From: a virus
Taxonomy: Duplodnaviria > Heunggongvirae > Uroviricota > Caudoviricetes
IMG/VR virus record: IMGVR_UViG_3300033075_001617
Coordinates: 13,560-77,559 of that record
Direction: 5' to 3' (one strand)
DNA: 64,000 nt
The notes beneath the pieces were generated by a model, which ran no database searches, was not told where the DNA came from, and saw only the letters and a list, made by a program, of their open reading frames with translations. Within the stretch, counting starts at the first letter, position 1. Every line of letters starts with the position of its first letter. The position numbers and the translations under genes are program-made. This document shows positions 4,012 through 36,859 of this stretch, piece by piece.

Positions 4012-4545
4012 CTAAGGAAAGGTTATGTAAGAGACTGGCACGTGGTCCGTGAGCCACACACCGTTGTCGGAGATGAAGAACTTGTGACCATCGTTGTGCA
4101 TGTGCTTTGCGGCCACCTCCAAGATGATGGCCTCACCCCGCCGCGTTCCGACCTTGGTGGCGGTCTCAACGTCCTTGGATAGATGCACGTGATGGCGGCT
4201 CATCTTTTGGAGACCCTCCTTCTGTATGGGGCCCAAGAACTTCTCGACCGTACCATGATAGAGGACCAGAGGCGGTACTTGCGACTTGAGGCCAAGGTCC
4301 ACATCGAGGGAGTGACCCTGTGCGGCTCTTATGCGCAGTCCGTCCTCGCTCAGGACATATCGTTTCTTGTCGTTCTCCGCCACGATGGATTCCAATTCTT
4401 CCCGCGTGACGACCTTGTTGTGCTTGGCCAGTTGCGACAGAAGCACGTCCACATCGACCCACCCCGCCTTGTCCAGTTTGATGCCTATGGTCTCAGGCTT
4501 ATGCCGCAGCACCAAGCTGAGGAATCTCGATACGTCTTTTCCCAT
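4012..4545 (-). CDS. kptA: RNA 2'-phosphotransferase Tpt1/KptA
   Basis: Near full-length match to the KptA/Tpt1 family: SRFLSLVLRHKPETIGIKLDKAGWVDVDVLL, RIRAAQGHS, LYHGT, HVHLS, GVWLT. 177 aa, typical size. Confidence 0.93.
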   Translation of the reverse strand: MGKDVSRFLSLVLRHKPETIGIKLDKAGWVDVDVLLSQLAKHNKVVTREELESIVAENDKKRYVLSEDGLRIRAAQGHSLDVDLGLKSQVPPLVLYHGTVEKFLGPIQKEGLQKMSRHHVHLSKDVETATKVGTRRGEAIILEVAAKHMHNDGHKFFISDNGVWLTDHVPVSYITFP

Positions 4546-4690
4546 CAGTTTGCGTATGCGGCGTACGTCGGCTTCTTTGGTCGTGTCGTTCTGGTAGGCC
4601 GTTCACTGAAGGTCACCAAAAGCACCAAGGCGAATACACCCACGGTGAGCGCTCCTATGGTAAGCACATCCAATATGTCATTTGTCTTTT

Positions 4691-6223
4691 TCATGCAAGC
4701 TTTGCTTTTTTCATTACCTCCAACTTCATCTTCTCGTAGCCATAAATATCCGACATCGGCTTGCGAATGTGAACATCGTTCGTATTCATTAGGATATCGC
4801 TCATCATGAACTCCGATGGATGCTCATACCCAGCGGCATAGGTCAAAGCAAGGATGTCCTTGCGGAGCGTCTTTATGAACCGCGCGATGCGTGGCGACTT
4901 ATCGTTGATATCGAAGCCGCGCTGAAGCCACCAGTTGTGGGTGGCGATACCAGCGGGGCATGTTCCCAATGCGCACTGCTTGGCCTGAATGCAGCCAGCC
5001 GACAACATGATCTCGCGGGCGATATTGATCATGTCGGCACCCATGGCGAAGGCGCGTACAGCCTTGGCCGGAAGTCCCAGTTTGGCGGATGCGATGAATA
5101 CCACCTTATCAGTAAGACCTTGCGTTTGGAACGCCTTGTAGACAGTCGTGAAAGCGTCGTTGAACGGCAGGCTCATGTGGTCGGAGAACGGAACGGGAGC
5201 GGCGCCTGTGCCACCTTCTCCACCATCGATGGTGATGAAGTCCGGACCCTTGCCCGTCTGTGCCATGCGCTCAGCCAACTCCAGCCAGAAGTCCTCTTTG
5301 CCGACCGCCGACTTGATGCCAACGGGCCTGCCCGTGTAGTCGGCGATCAATTCCACGAAACCGATGAGCTTGTCGACCGAGTCTATGCCATCGTGGTTGG
5401 CTGGGGAGATAACGTCATGACCTTTAGGGACGCCACGAATGGCGGATATCTCGTCGGTTACCTTGTCAGCGGGGAGCACGCCTCCCTTGCCAGCCTTGGC
5501 TCCCTGCGATAGCTTGATCTCGATGGCTTTGATCGATGGGTTTTTTGCGATCAGGTCCATCAGGATGGTCATGTCGAACTTGCGCTTGCCATCGGGCATC
5601 GTAATGCCGCAACCGAAGTAACCTGTTCCTACTTGGAAGACCACTTGATCCGCCCCCGCGTGATAGGGCGAGAATCCTCCCTCTCCCGTATTATGATATG
5701 CCCCGGCCTCGCGCGCCCCAAGGCCGTTCGCCATGGTAGCCTTCCATCCCAAGGCGCCATAGCTCATGGCGGAAATGTTGATGATGGATGTCGGCTGATA
5801 GGGATGCTTGCGGCGTGGACCTATTACCTTCCGGCATCCGACCTGATCCGTGTGTGGATCCTCCTTGGGAAATCCTGCGGGTAGGATGAAGAAATGGTCA
5901 TTCGATGTGAAATCGGCATCCGAGCCGAAGCCCATAAGGTTGTTCTGGTCCTTGGCTGAGGCATAGATGTAGGTACGCTCAACACGATTGAATGGTTGTC
6001 CATTCCTATCATTCTCAACGAAGTACTGCTGGATCTCGGGACGCACTTTTTCCGCGACAGGGCGAGCATTCCCTATCAGGGGGAAGTTGGTTTGGATGGT
6101 GTGCTTCTTGTTGAAGAAAAGGTCACGCACCAGCAAAACCAGCGCAGCAAGAACGACCGCAACGGTGATGCAGCCAATTGCGATGATGGCCATCATACCA
6201 ATATCGATGAACATTGTGCGCAT
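4691..6223 (-). CDS. glutamate-synthase domain-2-like FMN-dependent oxidoreductase
   Basis: GltB central-domain signatures GEGGFSPYH, ISPANHDGIDS, IDGGEGGTGAAP and GLPAKAV..AMGAD. N-terminal hydrophobic segment. 510 aa. Confidence 0.75.
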   Translation of the reverse strand: MRTMFIDIGMMAIIAIGCITVAVVLAALVLLVRDLFFNKKHTIQTNFPLIGNARPVAEKVRPEIQQYFVENDRNGQPFNRVERTYIYASAKDQNNLMGFGSDADFTSNDHFFILPAGFPKEDPHTDQVGCRKVIGPRRKHPYQPTSIINISAMSYGALGWKATMANGLGAREAGAYHNTGEGGFSPYHAGADQVVFQVGTGYFGCGITMPDGKRKFDMTILMDLIAKNPSIKAIEIKLSQGAKAGKGGVLPADKVTDEISAIRGVPKGHDVISPANHDGIDSVDKLIGFVELIADYTGRPVGIKSAVGKEDFWLELAERMAQTGKGPDFITIDGGEGGTGAAPVPFSDHMSLPFNDAFTTVYKAFQTQGLTDKVVFIASAKLGLPAKAVRAFAMGADMINIAREIMLSAGCIQAKQCALGTCPAGIATHNWWLQRGFDINDKSPRIARFIKTLRKDILALTYAAGYEHPSEFMMSDILMNTNDVHIRKPMSDIYGYEKMKLEVMKKAKLA

Positions 6224-6467: not shown

Positions 6468-6740
6468 TCATGTATTCGTATTAGCCGTAGCCGGTATAGC
6501 GTTCTTGGCGCCTCCATTCTTGAGACGCGTCATTTGCGTTTTGGATTCCATGTCAAGCTCGCCTAGGACTTCCTTCAGCGACTGGAGGAACTTGGGGTCG
6601 TTGGAGTAGACATTGATGGACCCATCAGGAGCCACTCCCATGAAGTGCTTGAGTTCTCCGTTCACCAGTACCGCCTCGAAGCGCCCGGTGTCCTTTGAGC
6701 CCCAGTTCAGTTCAATGATCCCACGTTCGTTCTTTTCCAT
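6468..6740 (-). CDS. hypothetical protein
   Basis: 90-aa ORF in the operon. Confidence 0.4.
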   Translation of the reverse strand: MEKNERGIIELNWGSKDTGRFEAVLVNGELKHFMGVAPDGSINVYSNDPKFLQSLKEVLGELDMESKTQMTRLKNGGAKNAIPATANTNT

Positions 6741-6801
6741 GATGTCCGCTGTCTGCGCGGTTATACGGACAAAGGTCGTACAAAGTTACGTACTAGGCAA
6801 A

Positions 6802-7173
6802 CTAATTCTTATGTTGTACGCCCTCCATCTGGAGAGTTATCTCATTGCACAGGGCGCTGAGTTCAGCGGCCTTCTGGGGATCCAAGAGACTGTTGGCGTC
6901 CAATCTGCGGCGAGCGCCATTGGCATCCACGGCGAACAGATCGAATGCGCCTCCGTCCTTCTGCAACGTCACGGCGACAATGTCTCCCACGGGGTTGTTC
7001 ATGCGCATGGTCAGACCATCCGGGGTCGGAGTGCCATGCTGGCCCACGAGCCGCTGCAACCGCACGTAGTTCGCCTCAGGCGATGCGATGTCAAGGTCAT
7101 CGGCTTTGGTGACCAAGTTCTCATTGAACTCGGAGACGGTCTCCCTTATCAGGCGTTGAAGCAGGTTCCTCAT
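6802..7173 (-). CDS. hypothetical protein (in frame with upstream aaRS-like ORF across one TGA)
   Basis: 123-aa ORF whose ATG lies 5 codons after the TGA stop of the aaRS-like gene, in the same frame. Confidence 0.45.
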   Translation of the reverse strand: MRNLLQRLIRETVSEFNENLVTKADDLDIASPEANYVRLQRLVGQHGTPTPDGLTMRMNNPVGDIVAVTLQKDGGAFDLFAVDANGARRRLDANSLLDPQKAAELSALCNEITLQMEGVQHKN

Positions 7174-10069: not shown

Positions 10070-10320
10070 TTGCGCAGGAGGGCGCGGAGAATTATCAAGC
10101 CATGGGCCAGCACCAATAGGGGCGTCATGATGCCAACGGTCTGCATCAGTATCAACAAGGCCTTCCCCACAGACTCATGCTCGAAGAAGTAGTCCGATAG
10201 CGCCACTTTCCCCAGTATGACGTATGTGGCCAAGACCATCAGGGCAACGAACACCGTGGCGCAGCCGATGGCCAAACGACGCGTCAGGGCCAGCCACATC
10301 TTTTCACGCTCGGTGAACAT
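10066..10320 (-). CDS. small membrane protein
   Basis: 84 aa with two hydrophobic helices. 4-nt overlaps with both neighbours. Confidence 0.45.
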   Translation of the reverse strand: MFTEREKMWLALTRRLAIGCATVFVALMVLATYVILGKVALSDYFFEHESVGKALLILMQTVGIMTPLLVLAHGLIILRALLRK

Positions 10321-11060
10321 CAGAATGCTTGACCCTTATTGGCCCGAATGTTCACAAAGTCCTTCATGATCATCTCGCTGTACCTCTTATCTGTCGCCCG
10401 CGCAATGCGCTTTGCGCGCCTTTCTTTCGGCACGCCCTTTTTCTCCAGCTTCTCGTTCTCTTGCAGGATGAAGTCGATCAACTTCTCATCGGCCACACTA
10501 TAGGCCTCATTGAGCATGGTGATGATAAGGTCCTTGTAAGAGAGAAAGGCGTCTTCATTGGAGAAGAACGATTCCATGGTCGAGAGCCGCTTCTTGAACA
10601 TCCGCTGCTCCTTTTTTGCGTGCTTGACGAGGTTCGCTTTCGCCTTGTCCACCGTCATGAGGCACTCGGTGCATTGCTCCAGCATGATCACATAGAACTC
10701 CTCGCCCTCCTCCTCTCTCACCTTGTGGAGTGGAACTTTCTTCTTGGTGACCTTGCTCATGAGCGCCGCTTTCCCTATGGGCTGGGCGTTCGTGAAGATG
10801 TTGTACTCCCCATTGCTCCATGACTCTCCGGCCCTGAGCCGCTCGTCGAACTCAATAAGTCCGATGGGCATGGTGCCGTCCTTGAAATTGATGGTGATCA
10901 CGGCCGCCTCGTCCTCCGAGGTGAAGTCCCCCAAGCTGCCGCTCATAGTGTATGGGCCATAGCACTTGGTGCCTTCATGATCCACATCGAACACGAATGT
11001 CACCACGTCACCTGCCTCCTCGCGCATAGCGAAACCCAGATATTCCATTTCCTTCAACAT
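10320..11060 (-). CDS. hypothetical protein, paralogue family A member 2
   Basis: EYLGFAMRE...GPYTMSGS...DGTMPIGLIEFD N-domain shared with 9590-10069. Lys/Glu-rich C-terminal extension. Confidence 0.55.
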   Translation of the reverse strand: MLKEMEYLGFAMREEAGDVVTFVFDVDHEGTKCYGPYTMSGSLGDFTSEDEAAVITINFKDGTMPIGLIEFDERLRAGESWSNGEYNIFTNAQPIGKAALMSKVTKKKVPLHKVREEEGEEFYVIMLEQCTECLMTVDKAKANLVKHAKKEQRMFKKRLSTMESFFSNEDAFLSYKDLIITMLNEAYSVADEKLIDFILQENEKLEKKGVPKERRAKRIARATDKRYSEMIMKDFVNIRANKGQAF

Positions 11061-11090: not shown

Positions 11091-11576
11091 TCAGTATACA
11101 AGTTGAACGACGTCGCCTATGAAATCCCTGTCGTACCCCACCTTCTTCCACTGGGGAATGATCTTTCTCTGGTCGAACATCCCTTGCTGCTTGGCCTGAA
11201 GCACCTTCTGGCCACAGGCGTACTTGAACTGGTCCATGTCCTCTTGGTACATGTCGAACACGTTCTCCATGCATTCTTGAACTGCCACGTTCACGGCCCG
11301 GACGTACAGATTGAGATCGTCATCGGCCTCTTCCTCCATCTTCTCCATGTATTCCTCAAGAGAGATGACCATGGTCCCATCAAAGAGCATGAACTCCGCG
11401 ACCACTATCTGGGACTCCGTCATGTCCACATCCCAACCGCGTATGACCCCGATGGGTGTGGAGTATGACCTGTCGCCCATGTTGAATGGGATGCAGAACA
11501 TGATGCTGTCCTCCTCGTTCGACCTGAACATGATGCCTTGATATCTCATGACACAATATAGCCTCTCCCGTATCAA
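11091..11576 (-). CDS. hypothetical protein, paralogue family A member 3 (divergent)
   Basis: Same residue pattern (G.MF...IPF...DGTMVISLEEY) as the other two members. Confidence 0.45.
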   Translation of the reverse strand: MIRERLYCVMRYQGIMFRSNEEDSIMFCIPFNMGDRSYSTPIGVIRGWDVDMTESQIVVAEFMLFDGTMVISLEEYMEKMEEEADDDLNLYVRAVNVAVQECMENVFDMYQEDMDQFKYACGQKVLQAKQQGMFDQRKIIPQWKKVGYDRDFIGDVVQLVY

Positions 11577-12159: not shown

Positions 12160-12366
12160 ATGAGATCAAGGATTTTCCAGTATGCCGTTCTGTTGCACCC
12201 CACTGAAGAACAGGTGGACAAAGGCATCAAGAGCAAGATGATCGTGGAACCCACCATCATTCTGGCCAACGACCAGAACAGCGCCAACATGGCCGCAGTG
12301 ATGGCCATTCCAGCCGAGTACAAGGACCAACTTGACCAGATCGAGGTCGCTTTGCGCCCTTTTTGA
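12160..12366 (+). CDS. hypothetical small protein
   Basis: 68-aa ORF followed by an overlapping downstream gene. Confidence 0.35.
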   Translation: MRSRIFQYAVLLHPTEEQVDKGIKSKMIVEPTIILANDQNSANMAAVMAIPAEYKDQLDQIEVALRPF

Positions 12367-12827
12367 GAGGGGGTCCTCTTGAGTACAAGTACGACCCGCA
12401 GAACGTAAAGGAAGATTACTTCCTGCCCACTAGGATGGATTCACTCGGTGGATGCGCCACAACGGTAGGAACGAACGTTCAGACCTATGACGCACGAGTA
12501 GGGACATTCCAAGGCGTCACCTCCTCTTGTGTCGCAGGAACGACCATTTCGGCCACGACGTTCTACTCTGGATCGACTGGACTCAGTGAGATATTCACGG
12601 CAAGCAAGTCGTGGGTCACCCCCGGAGTGTACTCCATGCAGGCTGACCATAGCCATTTCGATGATGGAATCGGCAGCACTGTGATGCTTCGCGAGACGAC
12701 CCCCACATCCTACGCACAATACACATCTGCTGGCTCAGTCCTCGCAAGTGCCGTCAACACCGTGAGCGATACGCCACGCGCGCAGGCATCCTACCAATCG
12801 GCCGCGTCCATCATGGGACGCCGCTGA
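12363..12827 (+). CDS. hypothetical protein (Ser/Thr/Gly-rich)
   Basis: 154-aa ORF with low-complexity S/T/G/A content. Confidence 0.4.
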   Translation: MRGGPLEYKYDPQNVKEDYFLPTRMDSLGGCATTVGTNVQTYDARVGTFQGVTSSCVAGTTISATTFYSGSTGLSEIFTASKSWVTPGVYSMQADHSHFDDGIGSTVMLRETTPTSYAQYTSAGSVLASAVNTVSDTPRAQASYQSAASIMGRR

Positions 12828-12852
12828 GGTCATTCCATCGGCAGGACCTCGA

Positions 12853-13113
12853 TCACCTTTCCATAGATGGTCTTGGTCCAGCCGTTGACGTGTCCTTCCC
12901 TGTTGCCGCCTTGAGAGCATTGCACCCCTCATTGAAAGCGGTAAACTCAATGGAGCCATCATTGTCGCGCTGAAGTATATCCTTGAGGGCCTTCAGCACG
13001 CGGCCATAGCTTCTGGCGCCACGCAGTGGGTTCTTGGGATTCACGCGACACGCTACCTTCCACAAGGTCCATAGCTCATCCTCTGTTGGTCTGCGTTCGT
13101 TGTATACGCTCAT
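12853..13113 (-). CDS. hypothetical small protein
   Basis: Trimmed to internal Met (MSVYNERRPTEDELW...) so it abuts rather than overlaps the next gene. Confidence 0.35.
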   Translation of the reverse strand: MSVYNERRPTEDELWTLWKVACRVNPKNPLRGARSYGRVLKALKDILQRDNDGSIEFTAFNEGCNALKAATGKDTSTAGPRPSMER

Positions 13114-13682
13114 TTTCTTGTCTTCTTTGACAAAGGTAGGCTTTGTTTCATGACATAGAAAGGAGCAACGACCCCGGAGTTGAAATGCTCTGCGGCTTCC
13201 AAGGCCTTGGTGATGCGTGTGACGGGCTCGATGTCCTCCGTCATGTACAAAGAGCCCAAGGCGAACCTCCCACCACTGCCGATGGCCGCGTAGTCTCGCT
13301 CCCACTCACTGACCTGAAAGTCGTCCTGCACCTCGTAGAGCTTGCCATTGAACCCCACAAGGAAGGTACCTCCCTCATTGTCCTCATGTTCGGGCGTGAA
13401 TCCATATCCATTGTTGGAGAAGCACCGTCTCACCTCATCAATGAACCGCGTCGTCATGAAACGCATGTCATCCATGAGTTTCGGTTTGGTGGGTATCTTC
13501 AGAGAGTACTGAAGAAGCTGCCCCATCCTGAAAGACCCGCACCATCCGATAAGCATTGGCCCATTGACAAAGACTTTCGGTTGTTTGATCCTATTACGAT
13601 CAAAGCTTTCTGTTTCACACGATGCGCTATCGCCTCCGATGTAGACGGCCTGCTTATGAACTATGCCGACGATGCAGGTCAT
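13110..13682 (-). CDS. proteasome-beta/HslV-like Ntn-hydrolase peptidase
   Basis: N-terminus MTCIVGIVHKQAVYIGGDSAS matches the proteasome-beta/HslV motif T-x-I-V-G-x...-I-G-G-D-S, with Thr at position 2 as the predicted nucleophile. 190 aa. Confidence 0.7.
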   Translation of the reverse strand: MTCIVGIVHKQAVYIGGDSASCETESFDRNRIKQPKVFVNGPMLIGWCGSFRMGQLLQYSLKIPTKPKLMDDMRFMTTRFIDEVRRCFSNNGYGFTPEHEDNEGGTFLVGFNGKLYEVQDDFQVSEWERDYAAIGSGGRFALGSLYMTEDIEPVTRITKALEAAEHFNSGVVAPFYVMKQSLPLSKKTRK

Positions 13683-14626
13683 TTCACCATCACAGCGGTG
13701 GAAGAACCATCGGTCACCAGTGTCGTGGGGTTCTTTCCGTCCCAGTTGGTGACCTTCAGGTATTCGACGTAAAGCGGGGTGATCTCCTCTTTCTTGATGC
13801 GCATGGCCTCCGCCACCGCCTTGGCCTCGATCACCTTCTGGGCGCTATCGCCCTGCGCCGCCATGATCTTGTTGAGGTTGGCCATCCTGATCACTTGGTT
13901 CTGCGCCTGCTCGGCGAGGGCGTCCTGAATGGCCTTGGTCTTGTTCTCGATGGAGCTTTTCAGCGATGGCGGCGGCTCGATGCCGGTCCTGATCTGAGAG
14001 AGGGTGAACCACTCGCTCACGCGCTTGTTTATCTCCGACATCACCCGCACCTCGTACTCGGTGCGATAGTTGAAGATGCTATCGACGGACCATTGGTTGG
14101 TGACGTCGTTCACAGCGCCCACAGTGGAGTTCTTCATCCATCGCTCCTGTATCTGATCGAGGGTCATGCGCTGGCTGACGTACATGTCTCCGGCATTCGC
14201 CGCTATTACCTCGTAGTTGAAGCTAGGGGTCACCGTTACAGGGAACCCACCTTTGGCGATGGCTACCTGTCCGGGATACTCCGCGTGCTGTTGACTCGTG
14301 GGCACCTCAACTATCTGCTCGGTGAGTTCATTGTATGGCACCCATCCGGTGGCGAACTTGTATTGGTCCACACCACGGTCCTTGCCCACGAGGTTCACGC
14401 GCAGCCCCACACATCCGGCGTCGATGCGCTCCATCTTGTACGGCTGTAATATCGACACGATGATGGAGACGACAAGCAGGGTGCCAGTGACAATGAGGTA
14501 TCTCAGCTTCACCGGCATACCAGCACCCCTCGCCTGTTCCGGGGTCAACTGATTGGACTTATAGGCCAACTTGGCGTAGGTGCCTGTTATGATGAGGCAC
14601 ACAAGGAAAACAACTACACTGATCAT
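13679..14626 (-). CDS. SPFH/band-7 (stomatin/prohibitin-like) membrane protein
   Basis: N-terminal TM helix followed by a band-7-like domain with an Ala/Glu/Gln-rich coiled-coil tail. Ends 4 nt inside the start of the downstream peptidase gene. Confidence 0.6.
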   Translation of the reverse strand: MISVVVFLVCLIITGTYAKLAYKSNQLTPEQARGAGMPVKLRYLIVTGTLLVVSIIVSILQPYKMERIDAGCVGLRVNLVGKDRGVDQYKFATGWVPYNELTEQIVEVPTSQQHAEYPGQVAIAKGGFPVTVTPSFNYEVIAANAGDMYVSQRMTLDQIQERWMKNSTVGAVNDVTNQWSVDSIFNYRTEYEVRVMSEINKRVSEWFTLSQIRTGIEPPPSLKSSIENKTKAIQDALAEQAQNQVIRMANLNKIMAAQGDSAQKVIEAKAVAEAMRIKKEEITPLYVEYLKVTNWDGKNPTTLVTDGSSTAVMVK

Positions 14627-14838
14627 GGTTTGGGGGTTTTGAAGAAGGTGCCCACCAATATGGTGAGCACGGCTACAGTGACAACGAGGGAAAGCGCGCA
14701 GCCCACCACTATCAGTACCGTATAGGTGCTGGAGTTGATGAGCATCTTGAGGGACAGACCACAGCTACAGATGGCGAGGATGATGAGGATCAATCTAGCA
14801 GCGGTCCACGTTGTTTGCTTGATCATGCTTTCTCTCAT
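14623..14838 (-). CDS. small membrane protein
   Basis: Trimmed to an internal Met so it does not overlap the tRNA at 14911-14983. 72 aa, two TM helices. Confidence 0.4.
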   Translation of the reverse strand: MRESMIKQTTWTAARLILIILAICSCGLSLKMLINSSTYTVLIVVGCALSLVVTVAVLTILVGTFFKTPKP

Positions 14839-14880
14839 AGGAGAAGCAAAGATAGTAATGTATTCTGATATGAAACGAAG

Positions 14881-14910
14881 AAGGCCGGGAAATTTCCCGG
14901 CCTTCTGTTG
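14881..14910. terminator. bidirectional rho-independent terminator
   Basis: Perfect GC-rich hairpin GGCCGGGAAATTTCCCGGCC flanked by T/A-runs on both strands, between the tRNA and the downstream gene. Confidence 0.6.
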
Positions 14911-14983
14911 TGACCCGTGAGAGATTCGAACTCTCAGCCTTACGCTTAGGACGCGTGCGCTCATCCACTTGAGCTTCCGGGCC
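14911..14983 (-). tRNA. tRNA-Arg (anticodon CCT)
   Basis: Manual cloverleaf: acceptor GGCCCGG/ACGGGTC, D-arm GCTC-AAGTGGAT-GAGC, anticodon arm CACGC-GTCCTAA-GCGTA, T-arm GAGAG-TTCGAAT-CTCTC, discriminator A. 73 nt. Confidence 0.75.
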
Positions 14984-15011
14984 GATGGCGCTAAGATAGG
15001 AAAAGAAGTAT

Positions 15012-15311
15012 TCAGTCCTTCTCGATCTTCTTCAGCTTGTCGTAGTACTCCGGGTCCTCCCAGATGTGGTCCGTGGCGATCTCTCGGGCCACAGCTTCAT
15101 CGTTGGTGTGTTCCATCTCCACGTCAGTGCCCTTCCTCAACTGGCGCTTGATCAGCCAGATGCTCACACCGTGATGGTCCACTAGGTCCTGTTGGCTCTT
15201 GCCCGATGCGAGCCCTCCGGGAATGCGCTCTTGGGTTCCCTCATGGATCCACGCCCGGATGATGCTTCGAAGTTCGTCACTCATGGCAATAAATAGCCAT
15301 AAGAGGTCCAT
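15012..15311 (-). CDS. hypothetical protein
   Basis: 99-aa ORF. Confidence 0.45.
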   Translation of the reverse strand: MDLLWLFIAMSDELRSIIRAWIHEGTQERIPGGLASGKSQQDLVDHHGVSIWLIKRQLRKGTDVEMEHTNDEAVAREIATDHIWEDPEYYDKLKKIEKD

Positions 15312-15322
15312 TCAGGGTTTGT

Positions 15323-15682
15323 TCAACGCGTCAGATACAAAGCCTTGGCCAACTCTGCCGCCTTGGCCCGCTGACCCTCCTCGAAGCTCTTCTGCTTCTC
15401 CCTCAAGATCCTCTTGCGGGCCTCTGCCGGAGAAAGGCGCGTGAGCACGATCTTGTCCAGCCACTCATTGATCCGGGCCAGTGGGGCCTTCTCGTCTATC
15501 ATCTGTTGGAGCCGCTTGCCCTCGACCGTGTCCTTGAAGATCTTCATGCCCACGTCAAGGAAACAACGGGATATCCAGAATGAGACGCCATCCTGAGAAA
15601 TGTCGTTGTTTCCCTCGATCTCGAACACGAGTATCGCAGAGCACCCCTTGGGGCCGTTGCCGATGATGATGTCGTCCCACAT
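15323..15682 (-). CDS. hypothetical protein
   Basis: 119-aa ORF. Confidence 0.45.
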   Translation of the reverse strand: MWDDIIIGNGPKGCSAILVFEIEGNNDISQDGVSFWISRCFLDVGMKIFKDTVEGKRLQQMIDEKAPLARINEWLDKIVLTRLSPAEARKRILREKQKSFEEGQRAKAAELAKALYLTR

Positions 15683-15732
15683 ACGGTGTTATACGAAGAT
15701 GGACAGCGTAATGTTTCAACGTAAGAAAGGGG

Positions 15733-15768
15733 CCCCGGCGCCGGGCCCCTTTCCCCTTGAGTCAATGA
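15733..15768 (-). terminator. rho-independent terminator (GC hairpin + T-run)
   Basis: aaaGGGGCCCCGGCGCCGGGCCCCtttcc. Strong hairpin with A-run and T-run flanks, in an intergenic gap. Confidence 0.5.
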
Positions 15769-15881
15769 GCAGATGATCCCACAATCCGTGCCCGAGTCAT
15801 GAGCCTCGAACAACCCTCTGGTGCGCTTCTACGAGAGGCGTAAGGTCTACTTGTGCAAATGTAAGAGATAATGTTCAATGT

Positions 15882-16476: not shown

Positions 16477-16565
16477 CTCCAAATTGTGATCCCGACAGGA
16501 TTCGAACCTGTAATGTTGTCTCATCAACAACGCACGCTTAGGAGGCGTGTGCAATATCCGCTCTG
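16477..16565 (-). tRNA. type-II (long variable arm) tRNA-like gene with anticodon CCT
   Basis: Acceptor GGTCCCG/CGGGATC, anticodon arm CACGC-CTCCTAA-GCGTG, 23-nt variable arm hairpin TGTTG-ATGAGA-CAACA, T-arm ACAGG-TTCGAAT-CCTGT, discriminator A. 89 nt. Confidence 0.55.
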
Positions 16566-16594
16566 CCACGGGACCGTTTGTTGGATCGTTATGT

Positions 16595-16939
16595 TCACTC
16601 CTCACCCCACATGACCTTGCAATCGAAGTCGTATTTGGCCGGGCCGATGCTTGAAAATATGCTTGGCCAAACCACCACTCTGTACCCCTTGCTCTCAAGC
16701 AGGTTCTTCAGCTTCTTGGTCATCACAGGCGCTTTCGTAAAGCGGGAAAAACATGGAAGCCCCTCTGCGTCTGGACAACGTCCATGCATGGTTATCACCC
16801 GCTCCCCCACCATGACGGCTTTCTCCAATTCCCTCTTGAAGTTCTGCAAAGCCTTTTCTTCCATCTCTTCCGTGCTCCAGAGAGAAACACAGTTGTCGCA
16901 GGCGTCGCTGGCCTCTTTGGCTGTCATTATATCTTCCAT
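16595..16939 (-). CDS. hypothetical protein
   Basis: 114-aa ORF. Confidence 0.45.
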   Translation of the reverse strand: MEDIMTAKEASDACDNCVSLWSTEEMEEKALQNFKRELEKAVMVGERVITMHGRCPDAEGLPCFSRFTKAPVMTKKLKNLLESKGYRVVVWPSIFSSIGPAKYDFDCKVMWGEE

Positions 16940-17021
16940 CCTGCAAAGATAAGGTTACTTAGCCGTTGCTATGCAACGTTTCCGATCATCGCCGACGTGG
17001 AGGCGAACCTTGTTGATGATC

Positions 17022-17094
17022 CACACGTGGAGGGATTTGAACCCCCAACCTTCGCTTTTGGAGAGCGCCACTCTACCAGTTGAGCTACACGTGT
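17022..17094 (-). tRNA. tRNA-Trp (anticodon CCA)
   Basis: Acceptor ACACGTG/CACGTGT perfect, D-arm GCTC-AACTGGTA-GAGT, anticodon arm GCGCT-CTCCAAA-AGCGA, T-arm GGGGG-TTCAAAT-CCCTC. 73 nt. Confidence 0.7.
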
Positions 17095-17109
17095 ATTCTA
17101 CTTCTATCG

Positions 17110-17185
17110 CACGCGCTGATCGAATCGAACGATCCCACGGGAATTTGGAGTTCCCGTCGCCTTTATCCTTGGAACATTAGCGCGC
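17110..17185 (-). tRNA. tRNA-like gene with CCA anticodon loop and non-canonical D region
   Basis: Acceptor GCGCGCT/AGCGCGT (7/7 with one G-U), anticodon arm ACGGGAA-CTCCAAA-TTCCCGT, T-arm GATCG-TTCGATT-CGATC. D-arm not foldable canonically. Confidence 0.4.
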
Positions 17186-17689
17186 ATGTACTTTTGATTC
17201 CTCCTTTGATACGAACGGGGTCAGCGCGCTCTGAGGAACAAAGAACGCGTGCCTTTCATTGCCGGATGGGTCGGACCAGTACTTCTGCTGCTTACCATCC
17301 GACCCCTTGATGAAGCCTCTTATCGCGAACGTCGGCGCTTTTCCCGTGAGCAAGAAGAAGAGCGCGTCGTCGCTGTCCTTCTCGTGCAATATCAATCGCC
17401 CGGTGTTGTATGATGTGGACCTGCATTCGATGCGCAGGTCCGGCATGTTCACATCTGAGGCCTTCAGGTCACCCATGTTGCCGTTGTAGAAGCATCCAAG
17501 CGCCTTGGCCAGCACCATCTCCGCGCATGCCCCCTCGATGTGGACTCCCCATCCATCCATTGTTTCGGCGCCGTACGCGTCCTTGAGCCCATTGCCCAAG
17601 TTATGCATCTGACGCATGATGCCGTACTGTACTCCGATAAAGAACTCTGTCTTGCTCAATGTGATCTTCATATTGCAAAGATAGCACAT
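17177..17689 (-). CDS. hypothetical protein
   Basis: 170-aa ORF between tRNA-like genes. Its last codons overlap the tRNA-like element at 17110-17185. Confidence 0.45.
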   Translation of the reverse strand: MCYLCNMKITLSKTEFFIGVQYGIMRQMHNLGNGLKDAYGAETMDGWGVHIEGACAEMVLAKALGCFYNGNMGDLKASDVNMPDLRIECRSTSYNTGRLILHEKDSDDALFFLLTGKAPTFAIRGFIKGSDGKQQKYWSDPSGNERHAFFVPQSALTPFVSKEESKVHAR

Positions 17690-17698
17690 CGATTGTAG

Positions 17699-17803
17699 CA
17701 GGCCTGACAGGAGTTGAACCTGTACATCGGCAGAGAGCGGTACCTCAGTCTGCCGAAAGGAAATTTGGAGTCTCCTCGTCTCGCCACGTGAACTAGCTGG
17801 CCT
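17699..17803 (-). tRNA. tRNA-like gene with CCA anticodon loop and a 35-nt extended variable region
   Basis: Acceptor AGGCCAG/CAGGCCT (6/7), anticodon arm GGAGA-CTCCAAA-TTTCC, variable region containing hairpin GGCAGA...TCTGCC, T-arm ACAGG-TTCAACT-CCTGT. 105 nt. Confidence 0.4.
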
Positions 17804-17809
17804 GTATTG

Positions 17810-17888
17810 TACCCCCGACAGGATTCGAACCCGCGTCTTCCGCTCCGCTACAGATAACCGCTTAGAAGGCGGAACTGGCTAAGGGGGC
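17810..17888 (-). tRNA. tRNA-like gene, candidate anticodon TCT, atypical D region
   Basis: Acceptor GCCCCCT/CGGGGGT, T-arm GCGGG-TTCGAAT-CCTGT, stem-loop CCGC-CTTCTAA-GCGG. Only a 9-nt connector lies where the D-arm should be. Confidence 0.35.
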
Positions 17889-18245
17889 ATGGCGATGTGA
17901 GGGATGGGTCAGAATTTTTAAGACCTCGGTCCGCATTGGCCTTCGCCCATGCTCTTGTCGCCGTCCCCATTTCACATCATTGCACAGACGGTGGCAATCG
18001 AAACCACTCGCGAAGATTTTGGAGATCCCGCCGACACCAAGCCTGTCGTCTGTATGGCGGAGAGCACAGCATCGAAGCTGATACGGCTCATCACCGTACG
18101 ACGCGCTTAGCAGGCGGTCCCCAGCTACCTGCCGGGCTTACTCTCCATTGAATTCTGCGGAAGACAGCGTACTCGAAACGCAGTCGCTTTCACGACCTCA
18201 ACGCTTTCCAAGCGTGACCAATCCCTGACTGGTTTGTCTTCCAAA

Positions 18246-18968
18246 TTACAACACGACTTTCAATCCCATATTTTTCAGATCAGTACCCATCAGAACCTTG
18301 AGTGGAAATGGGAATTCTTCCCACTTAGCCAGATCCTGTTCCGTCTTGTATCCCTTGATCTCAACATAGCAATTCTCATCTATCAAAAAGAAGTCTGGAT
18401 AATATGTCCTCTTATCGCCGTTCCACGCATAAGAGAATCCAGTTGTGTTCGCTTTCCATCTTACTCCATTAGCATCCAACCACTTCACGTATTCTAGCTC
18501 ATATGAGCTTCGCACATATACTTTACCAGCTATGTGGCTGTTATACCATTGTTTCACTCCCCGTCCACTGCCTTCCCTCATTCCTCCAGCCTTAGGATTG
18601 CCCTTCATTGCCTTGCTGATGTTTCTTCTTCTTTTCTCTTCGGCCTCCTCAGTATTGGCACAACCAACAGGAAACCCTCTGAGTATTCTAGTTTCTATTG
18701 CCTTTTTACCATTCTCTATCCACCTAGAATCTCCTTTGAACTTCTTTCCCTTATTCCATGGCGTCTTATCAGCTTCAGCATATCCAGCGGTATTATGAAA
18801 TTGTACACCACAGAATTTTCCCTTCTTAGCCGCAGAGTCCTTACTTCTTTTTGCTGTACAAGAATTTGGTGACTTGCTGCACCCATTACCACCATTGGCA
18901 TAATGAAACAATGCTGGCAGTCCACATCCGTAATCACATAACAATTTATCCATTGTACAACATAACAC
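18246..18968 (-). mobile_element. homing-endonuclease-like gene (Zn-ribbon + PD-(D/E)XK nuclease) inserted in the tRNA cluster
   Basis: Cys-rich N-terminus (CDYGCG...C..C) and C-terminal YYPDFFLIDENCYVEIKG fitting a PD...E-x-K nuclease motif. Free-standing gene between tRNA genes. Confidence 0.5.
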
Positions 18969-19013
18969 AATGGACTTTGTAAATCAAGTCTAGCTCATCA
19001 AACCAGTATTGAG

Positions 19014-19099
19014 CGGAGGCTACTGGACTCGAACCAGTACATCGGGATCAACCGATCTCATAGTTTTCGAAACTACGTACCGCTCCTTTGGGAGCCTCC
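19014..19099 (-). tRNA. tRNA-Ser (anticodon CGA), type II
   Basis: Acceptor GGAGGCT/AGCCTCC perfect, D-loop contains AGCGG, anticodon arm GTAGT-TTCGAAA-ACTAT, variable arm ATCGG-TTGA-CCGAT, T-arm ACTGG-TTCGAGT-CCAGT, discriminator G. Confidence 0.55.
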
Positions 19100-19104
19100 A
19101 ATTG

Positions 19105-19333
19105 TCCTCTGAACGGGAATCGAACCCGCACATCCCATTGCAAATTGAACTCGGAAACGCGCTTCCCTACGGACCCCACGGCCTTTCGGTGCTTCTGCAA
19201 CCATACGCTCAATACCCCATACCGTACTTGCTCAGGCGAAGCCCTCATCGCTTTCCGTAACAGGTCTTCGGGACCATGTTCACCACATGCCACCTTTCGT
19301 TTTACGTGTGCTCTTCCGTTGAGCTATCAGAGG
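19105..19333 (-). tRNA. interrupted tRNA-like gene: 5' half and 3' half separated by ~165 nt
   Basis: 5' half CCTCTGA-TA-GCTC-AACGGAA-GAGC at 19333-19310 and 3' half GCGGG-TTCGATT-CCCGT-TCAGAGG-A at 19129-19105 have perfectly complementary 7-bp acceptor strands. Neither half has its own partner nearby. Confidence 0.4.
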
Positions 19334-19412
19334 AATACTGCGAGCGGACAGGCCCATGATTTGTGACCTTTGGCTTTAATACGGGGACGGTCATGCCGTA
19401 ACCTACCTGCTC

Positions 19413-19489
19413 TGGTGATCCCGGCAAGGCTCGAACTTGCGACTGTCAGATTAGAAATCTGATACTCTGTCCAACTGAGTTACGGGACC
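19413..19489 (-). tRNA. tRNA-Arg (anticodon TCT), CCA encoded
   Basis: Acceptor GGTCCCG/CGGGATC, D-arm ACTC-AGTTGGACA-GAGT, anticodon arm TCAGA-TTTCTAA-TCTGA (perfect), T-arm GCAAG-TTCGAGC-CTTGC, followed by A-CCA. Confidence 0.8.
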
Positions 19490-19516
19490 AATCTTACTTA
19501 ACTGAAGCAAAGATAG

Positions 19517-20107
19517 TCAATGGACCTTCGGCCAAGAGGAGACCAGCACGAATTGCTGTCCGTAGTGCTCGTGGGCGGGATTGTCAGCGCGATAGACGGT
19601 GTATCCGGAGAACCCGATATCATCGAAGGCCTGCTTGGCGTCAATGGGAAGCGTGTAGTCCCAGAACGGGCCGCGCCCATGACGCTCATCTATCTTGTGC
19701 CTGCGGATGTAGTCGTCCACGAAGTTGGCCACTTCTTCGGCGTCGAATGTCATGTCGATGTCCATATCCTCCTTCATCGGCGTTTCGGCCGGAAGATACC
19801 AGAACTCCACCACCACGCAGTCCTTCCACATTCCCTTCTTGGTGTTCCTCGCCTTGACCTTGCGGTAGCCCTTGAACCCGATGTGGTCGAAGTACTCCGC
19901 TGCTGCCAAGGGCAGGTAGTAGTCCTGCGCCTTGCCGTAGCGGGAAGAACTGAAGAGCATGTTCTCCTTGATGTACTGGCTCACCAACTCGATGGTGGTA
20001 TCGCTCAGGACATCCGGGTCATCGTCCGATGTCATCTTTCCTTCATCTCCAACTGTGATGGTCTCCAATAAGCGACGCACCAGACTCCTCAGGTCCTTCA
20101 TGACCAT
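19517..20107 (-). CDS. hypothetical protein
   Basis: ORF trimmed to Met MVMKDLRSL... so that it starts 10 nt downstream of tRNA-Ser(TGA) instead of overlapping it. Confidence 0.5.
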   Translation of the reverse strand: MVMKDLRSLVRRLLETITVGDEGKMTSDDDPDVLSDTTIELVSQYIKENMLFSSSRYGKAQDYYLPLAAAEYFDHIGFKGYRKVKARNTKKGMWKDCVVVEFWYLPAETPMKEDMDIDMTFDAEEVANFVDDYIRRHKIDERHGRGPFWDYTLPIDAKQAFDDIGFSGYTVYRADNPAHEHYGQQFVLVSSWPKVH

Positions 20108-20116
20108 AAATAGCTG

Positions 20117-20205
20117 AGGAAGGTGTGGGATTTGAACCCACGGATCGCTTGCGCGACCTTCCGCTTTCAAGGCGAATACAATAAGCCGGACTCTGCCAAC
20201 CTTCC
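20117..20205 (-). tRNA. tRNA-Ser (anticodon TGA), type II
   Basis: Acceptor GGAAGGT/ACCTTCC perfect, anticodon arm TTCGC-CTTGAAA-GCGGA, variable arm GGTCGC-GCAA-GCGATC, T-arm GTGGG-TTCAAAT-CCCAC. 89 nt. Confidence 0.6.
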
Positions 20206-34373: not shown

Positions 34374-34821
34374 CCTCCAACAGTGTGAAGTGCGACATCA
34401 ATTTCATGCTCTTCAAGTTCTCGGTATAGTCACTGATCTTGAGTTCATCCAAGAGGACCACTGGCGCATCCTTCAGGGTGCTCGCGCCCTCTTCGCCAAC
34501 CACGATGTTCACCTTTGGTACAAGACTCAAGTAAGCATCGCCATCAATCACAAGTTCCTTGTAGAATTCCACGCGTTCGATCTTTTTGATGGGCTCCAAG
34601 GTGCAGACCAGCGCATTCACCACGTGGTACTCCTCTAGGAAGTAATCGTGGATGAAACCTTGAATGTGGAATCCCATGTTCATGAGGTCGCCCACGGTGG
34701 TGCCATCCAAAATGCACGGTTCGCTCACATTGGCCAGCAAGAATTCCCTCATCTGCTCCATGGGGAGGGAAATCGGGGTTCCATCCAAGGACAGGGCGCA
34801 ATCACTTCTTACTATCAACAT
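34294..34821 (-). CDS. hypothetical protein
   Basis: ORF overlaps the ClpA-like gene 3' end. Start set at an internal Met and is uncertain. Confidence 0.3.
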   Translation of the reverse strand: MLIVRSDCALSLDGTPISLPMEQMREFLLANVSEPCILDGTTVGDLMNMGFHIQGFIHDYFLEEYHVVNALVCTLEPIKKIERVEFYKELVIDGDAYLSLVPKVNIVVGEEGASTLKDAPVVLLDELKISDYTENLKSMKLMSHFTLLEVIDCAFSELGHIVTNNPEESVHIWSL

Positions 34822-36859
34822 CGATCCTGACTTTTTGCTTCTTCGTGTCGAAATGTACGGAGAATGCGTCACCGCTCCCCAACTTTTCCTCAAGCATCAT
34901 CTGGGCCACCTCGTTCTCCACCATCGTGGTGATCATCCGCTTCAGGGGCCTAGCGCCATACTGCTCATCGAATCCGTTGTCCAAAAGGAACTTCACCATG
35001 GATGGCTTTACGGTCATGGTCATCTTCTTGTCGGCCAACCTTTGGGCGAGCACATTCAACTCCAACGCGATGATCTTCTCACAATCCTCCTTGGTAAGGC
35101 TCCTGAACACTATTTTCTCATCTATCCTGTTCAATAACTCTGGTCGGAACGCCTTCTTCAATTCGGTCATGACACGGTCTTCCACCTCACGGGTTGACTT
35201 GCCCGTGTCGAACCCGATATCGTCATTGGACAACTCCTTGGTCCCTATGTTGGAGGTCATGATGACGATGCAATGTTTGAAGCTGACCTCCGAGCCATGG
35301 CTGTCGGTCAATCTTCCGTCATCAAGAACCTGAAGGAGGATGTTGAACACATCAGGATGCGCCTTCTCTATTTCATCCAACAGGAGAATGCAATAGGGCG
35401 TGTTCTTGACCTTCTCGGTGAGATAACCCTTGTCGTCATAACCAACATATCCGGGGGGACTTCCTATGAGCTTGTTCACGTTGAACTTCTCCATGTACTC
35501 GCTCATGTCGAGCCTGATGAACGCGCTGTCGAGATCGAACAGGTACTTGGCCAGCGTCTTCGCCAAGAACGTCTTGCCTGTGCCGGTCTTGCCCAAGAAC
35601 AGGAACGAGTAAGGCCGGTTGGGGTCCTGTATCTCCATCTTGCTGCGCTTGATGGACTGCACTATCTTCTTGATGGCGTGTTCCTGACCGATGACCACGC
35701 TGTTCAGCGTGTCTTCCATGTGCATCAGGCGCTCCTTCTCCGACTGCGCTATCTTGGTGAGCGGAATGCCGCTATGTTTGCTGAGCACGGCCGCAATATC
35801 TTCGTTCCTCACTTTGATCCTCAGCTTGCTACGGTCCTGTTTCCAACGTGCATAAAGGACATCAAGCTCCGCCTGTATCTTTCTCTGCTCATCACGCATC
35901 TTCGCGGCATCCTCATAGCGCTGGCTCTGGGCGCACTTCATCTTCTCCAGCACTATCTCTTTTAGGCGGTCCTCAAGCTCCTTGCATCCATCTGGCTCAT
36001 CGGCGCCATGGATGCGGGTGAAAGACCCGACCTCGTCCATGACATCGATGGCCTTATCAGGGAAGTGCCGGTAGGGAATGTACCTATCGCACATATCGAT
36101 GATCATCGAAAGGGAGCCCGCATCATACTCCACACCATGGAACTCCTCATACTTCGGCTTTATGTTGTTGAGTATCTCAAGCATCTCCACCTTACTTGGA
36201 GGGCTCAGCCATACCTTCTGGAACCTTCTATCAAAGGCCTCATCGGAAGCCATGTACTTCTTGTGATCATCGATGGTCATGGCGCCCATGCAACGGATAT
36301 CACCTCTTGCCAGAGCAGGCTTCATGATGTTCGATGCATCCAACCCTCCATTGGTGCCTCCGGCACCTATCATGGTGTGAAGTTCATCGATGAACAATAT
36401 GATGTTGGGGTTGCTTTGGATCTCCATGACCAACTCCTTCATCCTGTTCTCGAACTCGCCTCTGTATTTCGTACCCGATACGATCAGTGAAACATTGATG
36501 TCGAACACCACCTTGTCCCACATGGACCTGTCGATCTCCTTGTTGACTATCTTGATGGCGATGCCCTCGGCGAGACAACTCTTGCCCACACCGCTTTCAC
36601 CTATGATGAGCACATTGTTCTTCTTCCTCTTGTTGAGGACCTGAATGACCTGCTCTATCTGTACATCTCGTCCAATGACCGGATCGAGCTTGTTCTGACG
36701 CGCTAGGTCGTTGAGATTCCTGCCGAACAAGTCAAGCATTGGCGTTGTGCTTTCGCCCTTCTTGGCCTTCTCCAACTTCTTTTTGTCATCCTCCTCGAAA
36801 GCTCTGTCCGACATGTCTATCTGTTTTAGTGAAGTTAAGCCTGCGCTTTCAAAAACCAA
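34802..36859 (-). CDS. ClpA/ClpC-like double-AAA+ ATPase (Clp/Hsp100 chaperone subunit)
   Basis: Two nucleotide-binding domains with Walker A GESGVGKSC and GKTGTGKTFLAK and Walker B DELH/DEIEKAH. 685 aa. Confidence 0.85.
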   Translation of the reverse strand: MVFESAGLTSLKQIDMSDRAFEEDDKKKLEKAKKGESTTPMLDLFGRNLNDLARQNKLDPVIGRDVQIEQVIQVLNKRKKNNVLIIGESGVGKSCLAEGIAIKIVNKEIDRSMWDKVVFDINVSLIVSGTKYRGEFENRMKELVMEIQSNPNIILFIDELHTMIGAGGTNGGLDASNIMKPALARGDIRCMGAMTIDDHKKYMASDEAFDRRFQKVWLSPPSKVEMLEILNNIKPKYEEFHGVEYDAGSLSMIIDMCDRYIPYRHFPDKAIDVMDEVGSFTRIHGADEPDGCKELEDRLKEIVLEKMKCAQSQRYEDAAKMRDEQRKIQAELDVLYARWKQDRSKLRIKVRNEDIAAVLSKHSGIPLTKIAQSEKERLMHMEDTLNSVVIGQEHAIKKIVQSIKRSKMEIQDPNRPYSFLFLGKTGTGKTFLAKTLAKYLFDLDSAFIRLDMSEYMEKFNVNKLIGSPPGYVGYDDKGYLTEKVKNTPYCILLLDEIEKAHPDVFNILLQVLDDGRLTDSHGSEVSFKHCIVIMTSNIGTKELSNDDIGFDTGKSTREVEDRVMTELKKAFRPELLNRIDEKIVFRSLTKEDCEKIIALELNVLAQRLADKKMTMTVKPSMVKFLLDNGFDEQYGARPLKRMITTMVENEVAQMMLEEKLGSGDAFSVHFDTKKQKVRIDVDSKK

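Follow-up and report, generated by a model that had tools for sequence, protein, structure and literature searches.

An SPFH gene and a proteasome-like threonine peptidase gene set side by side in a tailed phage

We analysed a stretch of 64,000 nucleotides from a virus of the Caudoviricetes (positions 13,560 to 77,559 of the IMG/VR record IMGVR_UViG_3300033075_001617), referred to below as the window. Its minus strand carries four open reading frames (ORFs) arranged head to tail, each joined to the next by an ATGA-type overlap of 4 nt. These encode a two-helix membrane protein of 71 amino acids (aa; 14623..14838), a 315-aa SPFH/Band-7 protein (13679..14626), a 190-aa proteasome-like Ntn threonine peptidase (13110..13682), which is predicted to be soluble and has no propeptide, and an 86-aa protein with no assigned family (12853..13113), whose gene overlaps the peptidase stop. 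The original prediction, made from the letters of the DNA, had noticed the 4-nt overlap between the SPFH and peptidase genes and had read the pair as an unusual, phage-borne variant of the bacterial arrangement of SPFH proteins with NfeD/ClpP-class proteases. The overlap is indeed there, and carriage by a phage is consistent with the PHROG matches, the IMG/VR relatives and the many tRNA genes. The proposed partnership is not supported. Each family has been described from phages before, and the pairing is most probably an ordinary mosaic juxtaposition of two accessory genes, lineage-specific and present in two phages.

The SPFH cassette and the peptidase

The 315-aa protein passes the Pfam Band_7 model (PF01145) over residues 68-244 with 46.4 bits against a gathering score of 23.6 (E=6e-12) and matches phrog_200 with E=4e-37. 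An AlphaFold (AF2) model based on 26 homologues, with a predicted local distance difference test score (pLDDT) of 75, comprises an SPFH domain (residues 63-217), a long helix of ~60 residues (220-282) and a C-terminal tail with pLDDT <50; two N-terminal hydrophobic helices (2-24 and 41-60) are seen both in the model and by hydropathy. Foldseek returned HflK/C first (7vhq, 3e-11), followed by prohibitin, stomatin, the HflK/C-FtsH complex and QmcA-YbbJ, and the top of its list is held by cage-forming SPFH structures (7vhq, 8rrh, 9oh9, 7wi3 and 8z5g). As modelled, the protein is a canonical cage-type SPFH protein, which shares with HflK/HflC, prohibitin, stomatin and QmcA the succession of N-terminal membrane anchor, SPFH domain and long helix. 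It differs from them in having two N-terminal hydrophobic helices, not one, in being a single paralogue without a K/C pair, in its carriage by a phage and in its 71-aa two-helix neighbour. The lipoprotein annotation of phrog_200 was rejected for this protein, as it has no lipobox and no conserved Cys in its N-terminal region. The loop between the two helices bears several Lys or Arg residues in most homologues, acidic residues outnumbering them in a few, and in one homologue, which has only a single helix, the N-terminus is rich in K/R. Because of this loop, the positive-inside rule would direct the SPFH domain toward the periplasm, as in HflK/C; on this weak argument the domain is probably periplasmic. 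Among deposited phage genomes, 228 carry an SPFH gene.

The small protein encoded upstream shows hydrophobic helices at residues ~12-30 and ~39-64 by hydropathy, and the end of its gene overlaps the SPFH start by ATGA (14623-14626). We placed its start at 14838, and not at that of the mechanical 113-aa ORF (14623..14964), because a tRNA gene (14911-14983) overlaps the 5' extension and because the 71-aa gene is the one called in the near-identical contigs L001-L003, which represent the window's own phage. Among 80 viral loci with SPFH homologues, sampled from 407 confirmed matches, 66 have a two-helix protein of ~64 aa directly upstream on the same strand. Since jackhmmer with the 71-aa protein recovered none of the small proteins encoded upstream in the other SPFH loci as homologues, the equivalence of the two is one of position and topology only. 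Pfam yielded an insignificant match to ABC2_membrane_3 (E=0.89), NCBIfam none, and PHROGs, searched with the 113-aa ORF that contains the protein, likewise none. A small membrane gene that lies upstream of an SPFH gene, overlaps it and is kept in 66 of 80 phage loci resembles the SPFH-NfeD operons (QmcA-YbbJ, stomatin-STOPP). However, 71 aa leave no room for the OB-fold of NfeD or for a ClpP-like domain, and in place of an adjacent NfeD protein the downstream gene encodes a peptidase of the T1 type, not the S49/ClpP type. We thus regard the arrangement as a positional analogue of these operons and not as a member.

The 190-aa protein belongs to the proteasome-like (MEROPS T1) Ntn hydrolases, as judged from its family profile, fold and catalytic residues. 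It matches phrog_1040 ('peptidase HslV family') with E=3e-22 and does not reach Pfam PF00227 (Proteasome; 15.1 bits against a cut-off of 22.4), the family having diverged too far for this model. A search of the PDB with the single sequence gave marginal matches only. A family profile of 32 sequences matched BPH 5ovu best (E=1.3e-6), over the full length and with Thr on Thr, and then HslV and 20S beta subunits. Across this alignment M1, T2, C3, D18, S19, K36, G46, G135 and G137 are invariant. The protein starts with MTC, the Thr directly after Met aligning with Thr1 of BPH, and D18, K36 and G46 are the equivalents of Asp17, Lys33 and Gly47, in an alignment to GADA, QKV, VGLAG and GIGSG of 5ovu; in the G-S-G motif of the family, G135 and G137 flank a Ser or Cys. 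The AF2 model (pLDDT 90, predicted template modelling score 0.87) adopts the alpha-beta-beta-alpha fold of proteasome beta subunits, with helices at 51-60, 72-90, 138-147 and 153-167 (DSSP) and no extra domain. With this model, Foldseek found BPH 5ovt as the best match (template modelling score 0.76), followed by HslV, 20S beta subunits and Anbu; there were 959 matches at E<=0.001, and the top 50 listed are all BPH, HslV, 20S proteasome subunits or Anbu. The earlier assignment to the proteasome-beta/HslV type is borne out by these matches and by the Thr after Met; neither a loss of Thr1 nor a match to a non-peptidase family was found. Hydropathy detected no hydrophobic segment in the protein, and there is no signal peptide. 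From its sequence, the peptidase is most likely soluble and cytoplasmic; removal of Met by host methionine aminopeptidase would expose Thr1, and the enzyme would be proteolytically active.

Within the superfamily, the peptidase was rejected as HslV proper. It lies far below the NCBIfam HslV equivalog cut-offs (18.1 against 137 for NF003964 and 16.1 against 157.75 for TIGR03692), and hslU is not adjacent, the neighbours scanned within ~3 kb being the SPFH, 71-aa, 86-aa and DUF5661 genes and unknowns. Moreover, no AAA+ ATPase was present among the genes scanned at ~10.3-16.9 kb and no HslU-type protein among the window proteins scanned; the AAA+ genes seen in the window are Clp-type and FtsH-like only, 12-21 kb from the peptidase. 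The fold and the Met-Thr start are shared with HslV (ClpQ), and the 'HslV' label given by PHROG and JGI is a superfamily-level annotation. BPH (5ovs, 5ovt, 5ovu) is the best match by profile and by structure and also has Thr directly after Met, but it shares only 15-22% identity and appears to be a separate family; the assembly of BPH is a heptameric double ring. For neither of the two is an unfoldase partner known. Fuchs, Alva and Lupas 2021 (PMC8665760) describe PPH, AAH and CPH and find AAH-type homologues to be common in phages. PPH was excluded for our protein, as all four flanking helices are present and the ~140-aa PPH described there lacks H2. With AAH the peptidase shares a compact group I beta subunit of ~180 aa with H1-H4 and no insertions, propeptide or C-terminal extension, relatives in Alphaproteobacteria, Actinobacteria, Firmicutes and many phages, and the absence of a conserved genomic context around its homologues; it differs in its many relatives from Myxococcota, a group that the accessible part of PMC8665760 does not mention. 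Most likely it is thus an AAH-family, group I protein related to BPH and HslV, a placement made from the described features.

Cellular relatives of the peptidase come from Azospirillum, Skermanella, Mesorhizobium, Streptomyces, Actinomadura, Frankia and Polyangiaceae and also from Firmicutes. In a collection of 5.8 billion clusters we counted 6,432 relatives (90%-identity clusters) at E<=0.001, and a viral-contig collection held 482 confirmed matches. The view that an Ntn peptidase is unusual in a phage is outdated, as relatives occur in 81 deposited phage genomes and PMC8665760 already places PPH, AAH and CPH in phages. A role as prohead protease, brought up by homologues that lie between terminase and portal genes, was rejected for the window, whose peptidase gene has tRNA and DNA-metabolism genes around it. 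Elsewhere, a homologue overlaps the end of the large-terminase gene in 13 viral loci (L044, L045, L049 and others), and a portal-like gene follows a homologue in at least six; in this packaging-module context the (pro)phage homologues may have a separate role.

The overlap, co-occurrence and sister phages

The SPFH/peptidase junction reads GTGAAATGACCTGC, in which the SPFH stop TGA (13679-13681) and the peptidase ATG (13680-13682) lie inside ATGA. The same type of overlap is found with the gene before SPFH (14623-14626) and the gene after the peptidase (13110-13113), and 4-nt overlaps make up 9 of the 56 same-strand junctions of the window. Because an obligatory Met-Thr start is encoded as ATG-ACN, a TGA in the +1 frame is always present at the peptidase start, and any upstream ORF in that frame therefore ends there. 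An upstream ORF of at least 60 aa does end in the peptidase ATGA in 29 of 62 viral loci; with lengths of 63-850 aa, these are clearly different genes. The same overlap is also made by the unrelated upstream genes of three related contigs (L086, L254 and L088). Being generic for Met-Thr starts, the overlap thus carries no information on partnership. Co-transcription of the SPFH and peptidase genes is likely, and their translation is possibly coupled.

Adjacency of the two genes was surveyed from both sides. The forward sample consisted of the best 80 of the 482 viral stretches with confirmed peptidase relatives, taken with flanks of 6 kb on either side. By phmmer, five-round jackhmmer and a family hidden Markov model, SPFH lay within 6 kb of the peptidase only in L001-L003 and in a second phage, L004 (IMGVR_UViG_3300033067_002362); neighbours elsewhere include NAD-dependent ligase, HD-domain, large terminase, Phe-tRNA-synthetase-like, Thg1-like and HNH genes. 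In 80 peptidase loci from bacteria and metagenome-assembled genomes, 78 of which yielded the peptidase ORF, no SPFH was detected within 6 kb even at E<=10, and clustering of the neighbours, dominated by spurious high-GC ORFs, gave no conserved partner. In the reverse sample, that is, the 80 SPFH loci described above, a peptidase was near SPFH once, in L090, and this contig is L004 again. Taken together, SPFH-peptidase adjacency accounts for 2 of ~240 independent loci. In Salmonella phage PHA46, Moorella phage MTATph1 and Flavobacterium phage FL-1, the annotation around each gene shows no copy of the other nearby. For these proteasome homologues, Fuchs, Alva and Lupas 2021 (PMC8665760) report no conserved or informative genomic context and no AAA+ partner.

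Contigs that share the gene order of the window (DUF5661, peptidase, an opposite-strand gene of 68 aa, DNA ligase) represent six lineages, and only the window and L004 have the two-helix protein, SPFH and peptidase genes in succession. The peptidase stands without SPFH in the other four. It follows straight after the intergenic region in L084/L085 and L253 and is preceded by an unrelated gene of 197 aa or 155 aa in L086 and L254; in L088, a more distant relative, an HD_4 gene lies upstream. The boundaries are sharpest in L084, which lacks exactly window 14830..13684 between flanks that are 88-98% identical in DNA (blastn and alignment). Just upstream of the 71-aa and SPFH genes, the minus strand of the window carries a tRNA gene (14911..14983; Rfam RF00005 with 42.8 bits, gathering score 29), a G+C-rich inverted repeat AGAAGGCCGGGAAATTTCCCGGCCTTCTTC (14877..14906), which is kept in L084 and L004, and a conserved leader CATATCAGAATACATTACTATCTTTGCTTCTCCTATGAGAGA (14831..14872; blastn and alignment), which precedes the 71-aa gene in the window and the peptidase gene directly in L084. 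There, the stem-loop and leader (corresponding to 14906-14831) run directly into the peptidase ATG, and the ATGAGAGA start of the small membrane gene is retained as a relic of five codons that ends in the peptidase ATGA. The 71-aa and SPFH genes are therefore a two-gene cassette that forms a clean indel between tRNA, stem-loop and leader on one side and the next gene on the other.

A second boundary emerges from the comparison with L004. The cassettes of the two phages are 90-95% identical in DNA. Identity to the window is 87-100% over the cassette and drops sharply, from ~90% to ~60%, at ~13628, inside peptidase codon ~18; at the protein level, SPFH is 98% identical and the peptidase 64%. This drop and the disparity between the proteins indicate that SPFH and peptidase have different histories, with a recombination breakpoint between them. 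The peptidase gene shares 66% DNA identity with that of L084, and together with the following gene it makes up a hypervariable island inside phage genomes that are otherwise 88-98% identical. L086 carries an inserted TnpB/Cas12f-like gene (4162-5400; OrfB_IS605 and Cas12f1-like_TNB), which lies two genes upstream of the peptidase. By eye, an N-terminal motif …V.F..D…YGPY…G… is common to the window neighbours 10320-11060 (-) and 11091-11549 (-) and to L086 5411-6004 and L254 3537-4004, the latter two lying directly upstream of the peptidase; the motif suggests a paralogous family, which has no Pfam family.

Neighbouring genes and other proteostasis genes

Rfam detected the tRNA at 14911-14983, which ARAGORN missed. 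The inverted repeat next to it may be terminator-like in role; a scan for consensus promoters and terminators over 12300-15800 gave nothing above shuffled expectation and did not call this repeat. The interval from DUF5661 to the peptidase is an insertion hot spot (window 14911-14983; L084 5703-5774; L004 ~4600), in which the tRNAs differ between relatives. Its content there comprises varied tRNAs, a conserved non-coding stretch of ~300 nt and a small CxxC protein, with or without the cassette. Seven more tRNA genes lie just upstream on the minus strand (16486-20205; Arg-CCT, two Trp-CCA, Ser-GGA, Ser-CGA, Arg-TCT and Ser-TGA), with small ORFs between them. Megablast of the locus gave no match among deposited phages, and there is thus no cultured close relative.

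Downstream of the peptidase, the 86-aa protein matched nothing in Pfam or PHROG. It looks like the product of a 95-aa gene in the same position of L255 (shared ELxxLW...INP...SY.RV motif; by eye, unscored). A link to UBact through this relative was rejected, its match being insignificant (E=0.16) and the window protein giving none. At 12830..12906 on the minus strand, translation and blastn of window 12906..12786 against L004 and L084 identify the 3' remnant (…GHVNGWTKTIYGKVIEVLPME, then the stop) of a ~100-aa gene. In six related contigs, a conserved gene of ~92-104 aa (…EKGNSMVPLIHSNQEHVLAP…GKVIEVLP) follows the peptidase gene intact (L004 ~6565-6875, L084 6600-6878, L086 6552-6866, L253 4567-4875, L254 4549-4857 and L255 873-1184), usually with a 4-nt overlap, with a 26-nt gap in L084 and with another gene between in L255. 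The window keeps only the 3' end of this gene, the remainder having been replaced by the 86-aa gene. Within the clade, it is a steadier neighbour of the peptidase than SPFH. Pfam found nothing in the versions of the sister phages; their GNSMVP (GNSM-P) motif is reminiscent of S24/S26 peptidases.

Four genes of a proteostasis type lie within 25 kb, namely those for SPFH, the Ntn peptidase, a Clp ATPase and an FtsH-like protein. The Clp ATPase (34802-36814, minus strand) is a two-ring Clp/Hsp100 AAA+ protein of 670 aa, an unfoldase encoded by the phage, that matches ClpB with 4.7e-224, ClpA with 1e-197 and also phrog_4871. It apparently lacks the usual N-terminal domain, the ClpA model being matched from position 150, and carries IGF at 533-535, which would be a loop of the ClpP-docking type; tblastn with this protein against phages identified no phage lineage. 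The FtsH-like protein (25850-27850, minus strand; 666 aa) contains Walker A (GMTGVGKT) and, C-terminally, an M41 metalloprotease domain (HEAGH). As it has no hydrophobic segment, it would be soluble and no candidate client of an SPFH cage. Further on the minus strand, ARAGORN called a tRNA with anticodon CUA (29689-29758; amber suppressor, labelled 'Pyl'), and ~400 nt downstream of it Rfam found a 144-nt tRNA (29176-29319) with an insertion of ~70 nt after the anticodon region, possibly an intron. Full TAG recoding is not evident, as TAG ends 10 of 69 crude gene calls.

Partnership or juxtaposition

With these data at hand, we consider it quite probable that independent modules were set side by side by mosaicism. 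The locus would then be a mosaic of two phage accessory modules that run in the same transcription direction without spacers. The first would be a mobile cassette of the 71-aa protein and an HflK/C-like SPFH protein, either inserted here or deleted in the sister phages, whose products, to judge from solved SPFH assemblies, would most likely assemble into an oligomeric SPFH cage at the inner membrane of the host. The second would be a soluble, cytoplasmic threonine protease of the AAH/BPH kind, encoded by a gene that is widespread in phages, stands alone and keeps no constant neighbour. Their ATGA overlap would be a by-product of the Met-Thr start and provide co-expression at most, not partnership. 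If the predicted topology is right, the SPFH domain would be periplasmic and the peptidase cytoplasmic, where its Met is removed, and the two would therefore make no contact.

Several points speak against two independent modules. SPFH proteins are classically tied to proteases, as in HflK/C-FtsH and stomatin-NfeD. The missing conservation is compatible with an interaction specific to this lineage, and the pairing persists in two phages although their peptidase alleles are only 64% identical. Three or four of the genes probably form one transcript with coupled translation and matched expression. The compartment argument, in turn, is weak, being drawn from the positive-inside rule alone. On such grounds one could envisage that the SPFH protein and its small membrane partner form a cage to which the Ntn peptidase is recruited or by which it is regulated, a threonine-protease counterpart of stomatin-NfeD or HflK/C-FtsH. 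The adjacency with its ATGA overlap, retained by two phages whose peptidase alleles diverge, would fit, as would the ability of SPFH cages to enclose or regulate proteases (compare the PDB matches 7vhq, 7wi3, 9cz2 and 8z5g). We nevertheless judge such a complex very unlikely. Only 2 of ~240 loci have the pair, and in four sister lineages the peptidase occurs without SPFH; the two genes are set apart by a recombination breakpoint, and their overlap is generic. SPFH has another conserved partner in the ~64-aa two-helix protein, the two products are predicted in different compartments, and the peptidase is a compact core with no membrane-binding or extra domain. It is on the rare adjacency, the sister phages, the indel, the breakpoint and the other SPFH partner that the proposed variant of the SPFH-NfeD/ClpP arrangement fails. 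We also give very little credence, barely any, to the idea that the inserted cassette gave rise to a new operon, whose SPFH cage would tether or gate the peptidase at the host membrane. If so, SPFH and a T1 protease would for the first time be joined in one system, and an AAH-type homologue would for the first time have a functional context.

The two genes may also act on, or with, other components. The cassette might encode an HflK/C mimic that acts on host FtsH, or on another inner-membrane protease or complex, and changes membrane-protein quality control, the peptidase being unrelated to it. This would refine the cassette's part in the two-module explanation and is therefore compatible with it. 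The closest structures include the HflK/C-FtsH complex, source annotations of the homologues read 'regulator of protease activity HflC', and the predicted periplasmic SPFH domain agrees with the topology of HflK/C. Yet prohibitin, stomatin and QmcA score equally well in Foldseek, so that HflK/C does not stand out, the FtsH-like protein that the phage itself encodes has no membrane segment and could not sit in the cage, and phage SPFH proteins, named in many phage genome papers, come without a functional study in that literature; we view this possibility as tentative and, on balance, rather unlikely. The peptidase, for its part, might be the core of a two-component ATP-dependent protease with the Clp ATPase at 34802-36814, in analogy to HslUV. 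It is related to HslV and BPH, and the ATPase is a two-ring Clp/Hsp100 protein encoded in the same window with the IGF tripeptide in its D2 loop. However, the genes are 21 kb apart, such a loop is a signature of docking to ClpP and not to HslV, and BPH is without a known unfoldase. PMC8665760 likewise reports no AAA+ co-occurrence, and we consider this pairing very improbable.

Our preferred explanation of two modules joined by mosaicism carries a caution for the reading of phage operons: where a gene must start with Met-Thr, its start context already provides for the 4-nt ATGA overlap, which says nothing on partnership. Two results are possibly useful beyond this locus, namely that AAH-like homologues of the proteasome abound in phages and metagenomes, and that a two-helix membrane protein together with SPFH makes up a conserved mobile phage cassette (66 of 80 loci). 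If the pairing were functional, it would widen the SPFH-protease theme to threonine proteases and offer a first handle on the function of phage proteasome homologues.

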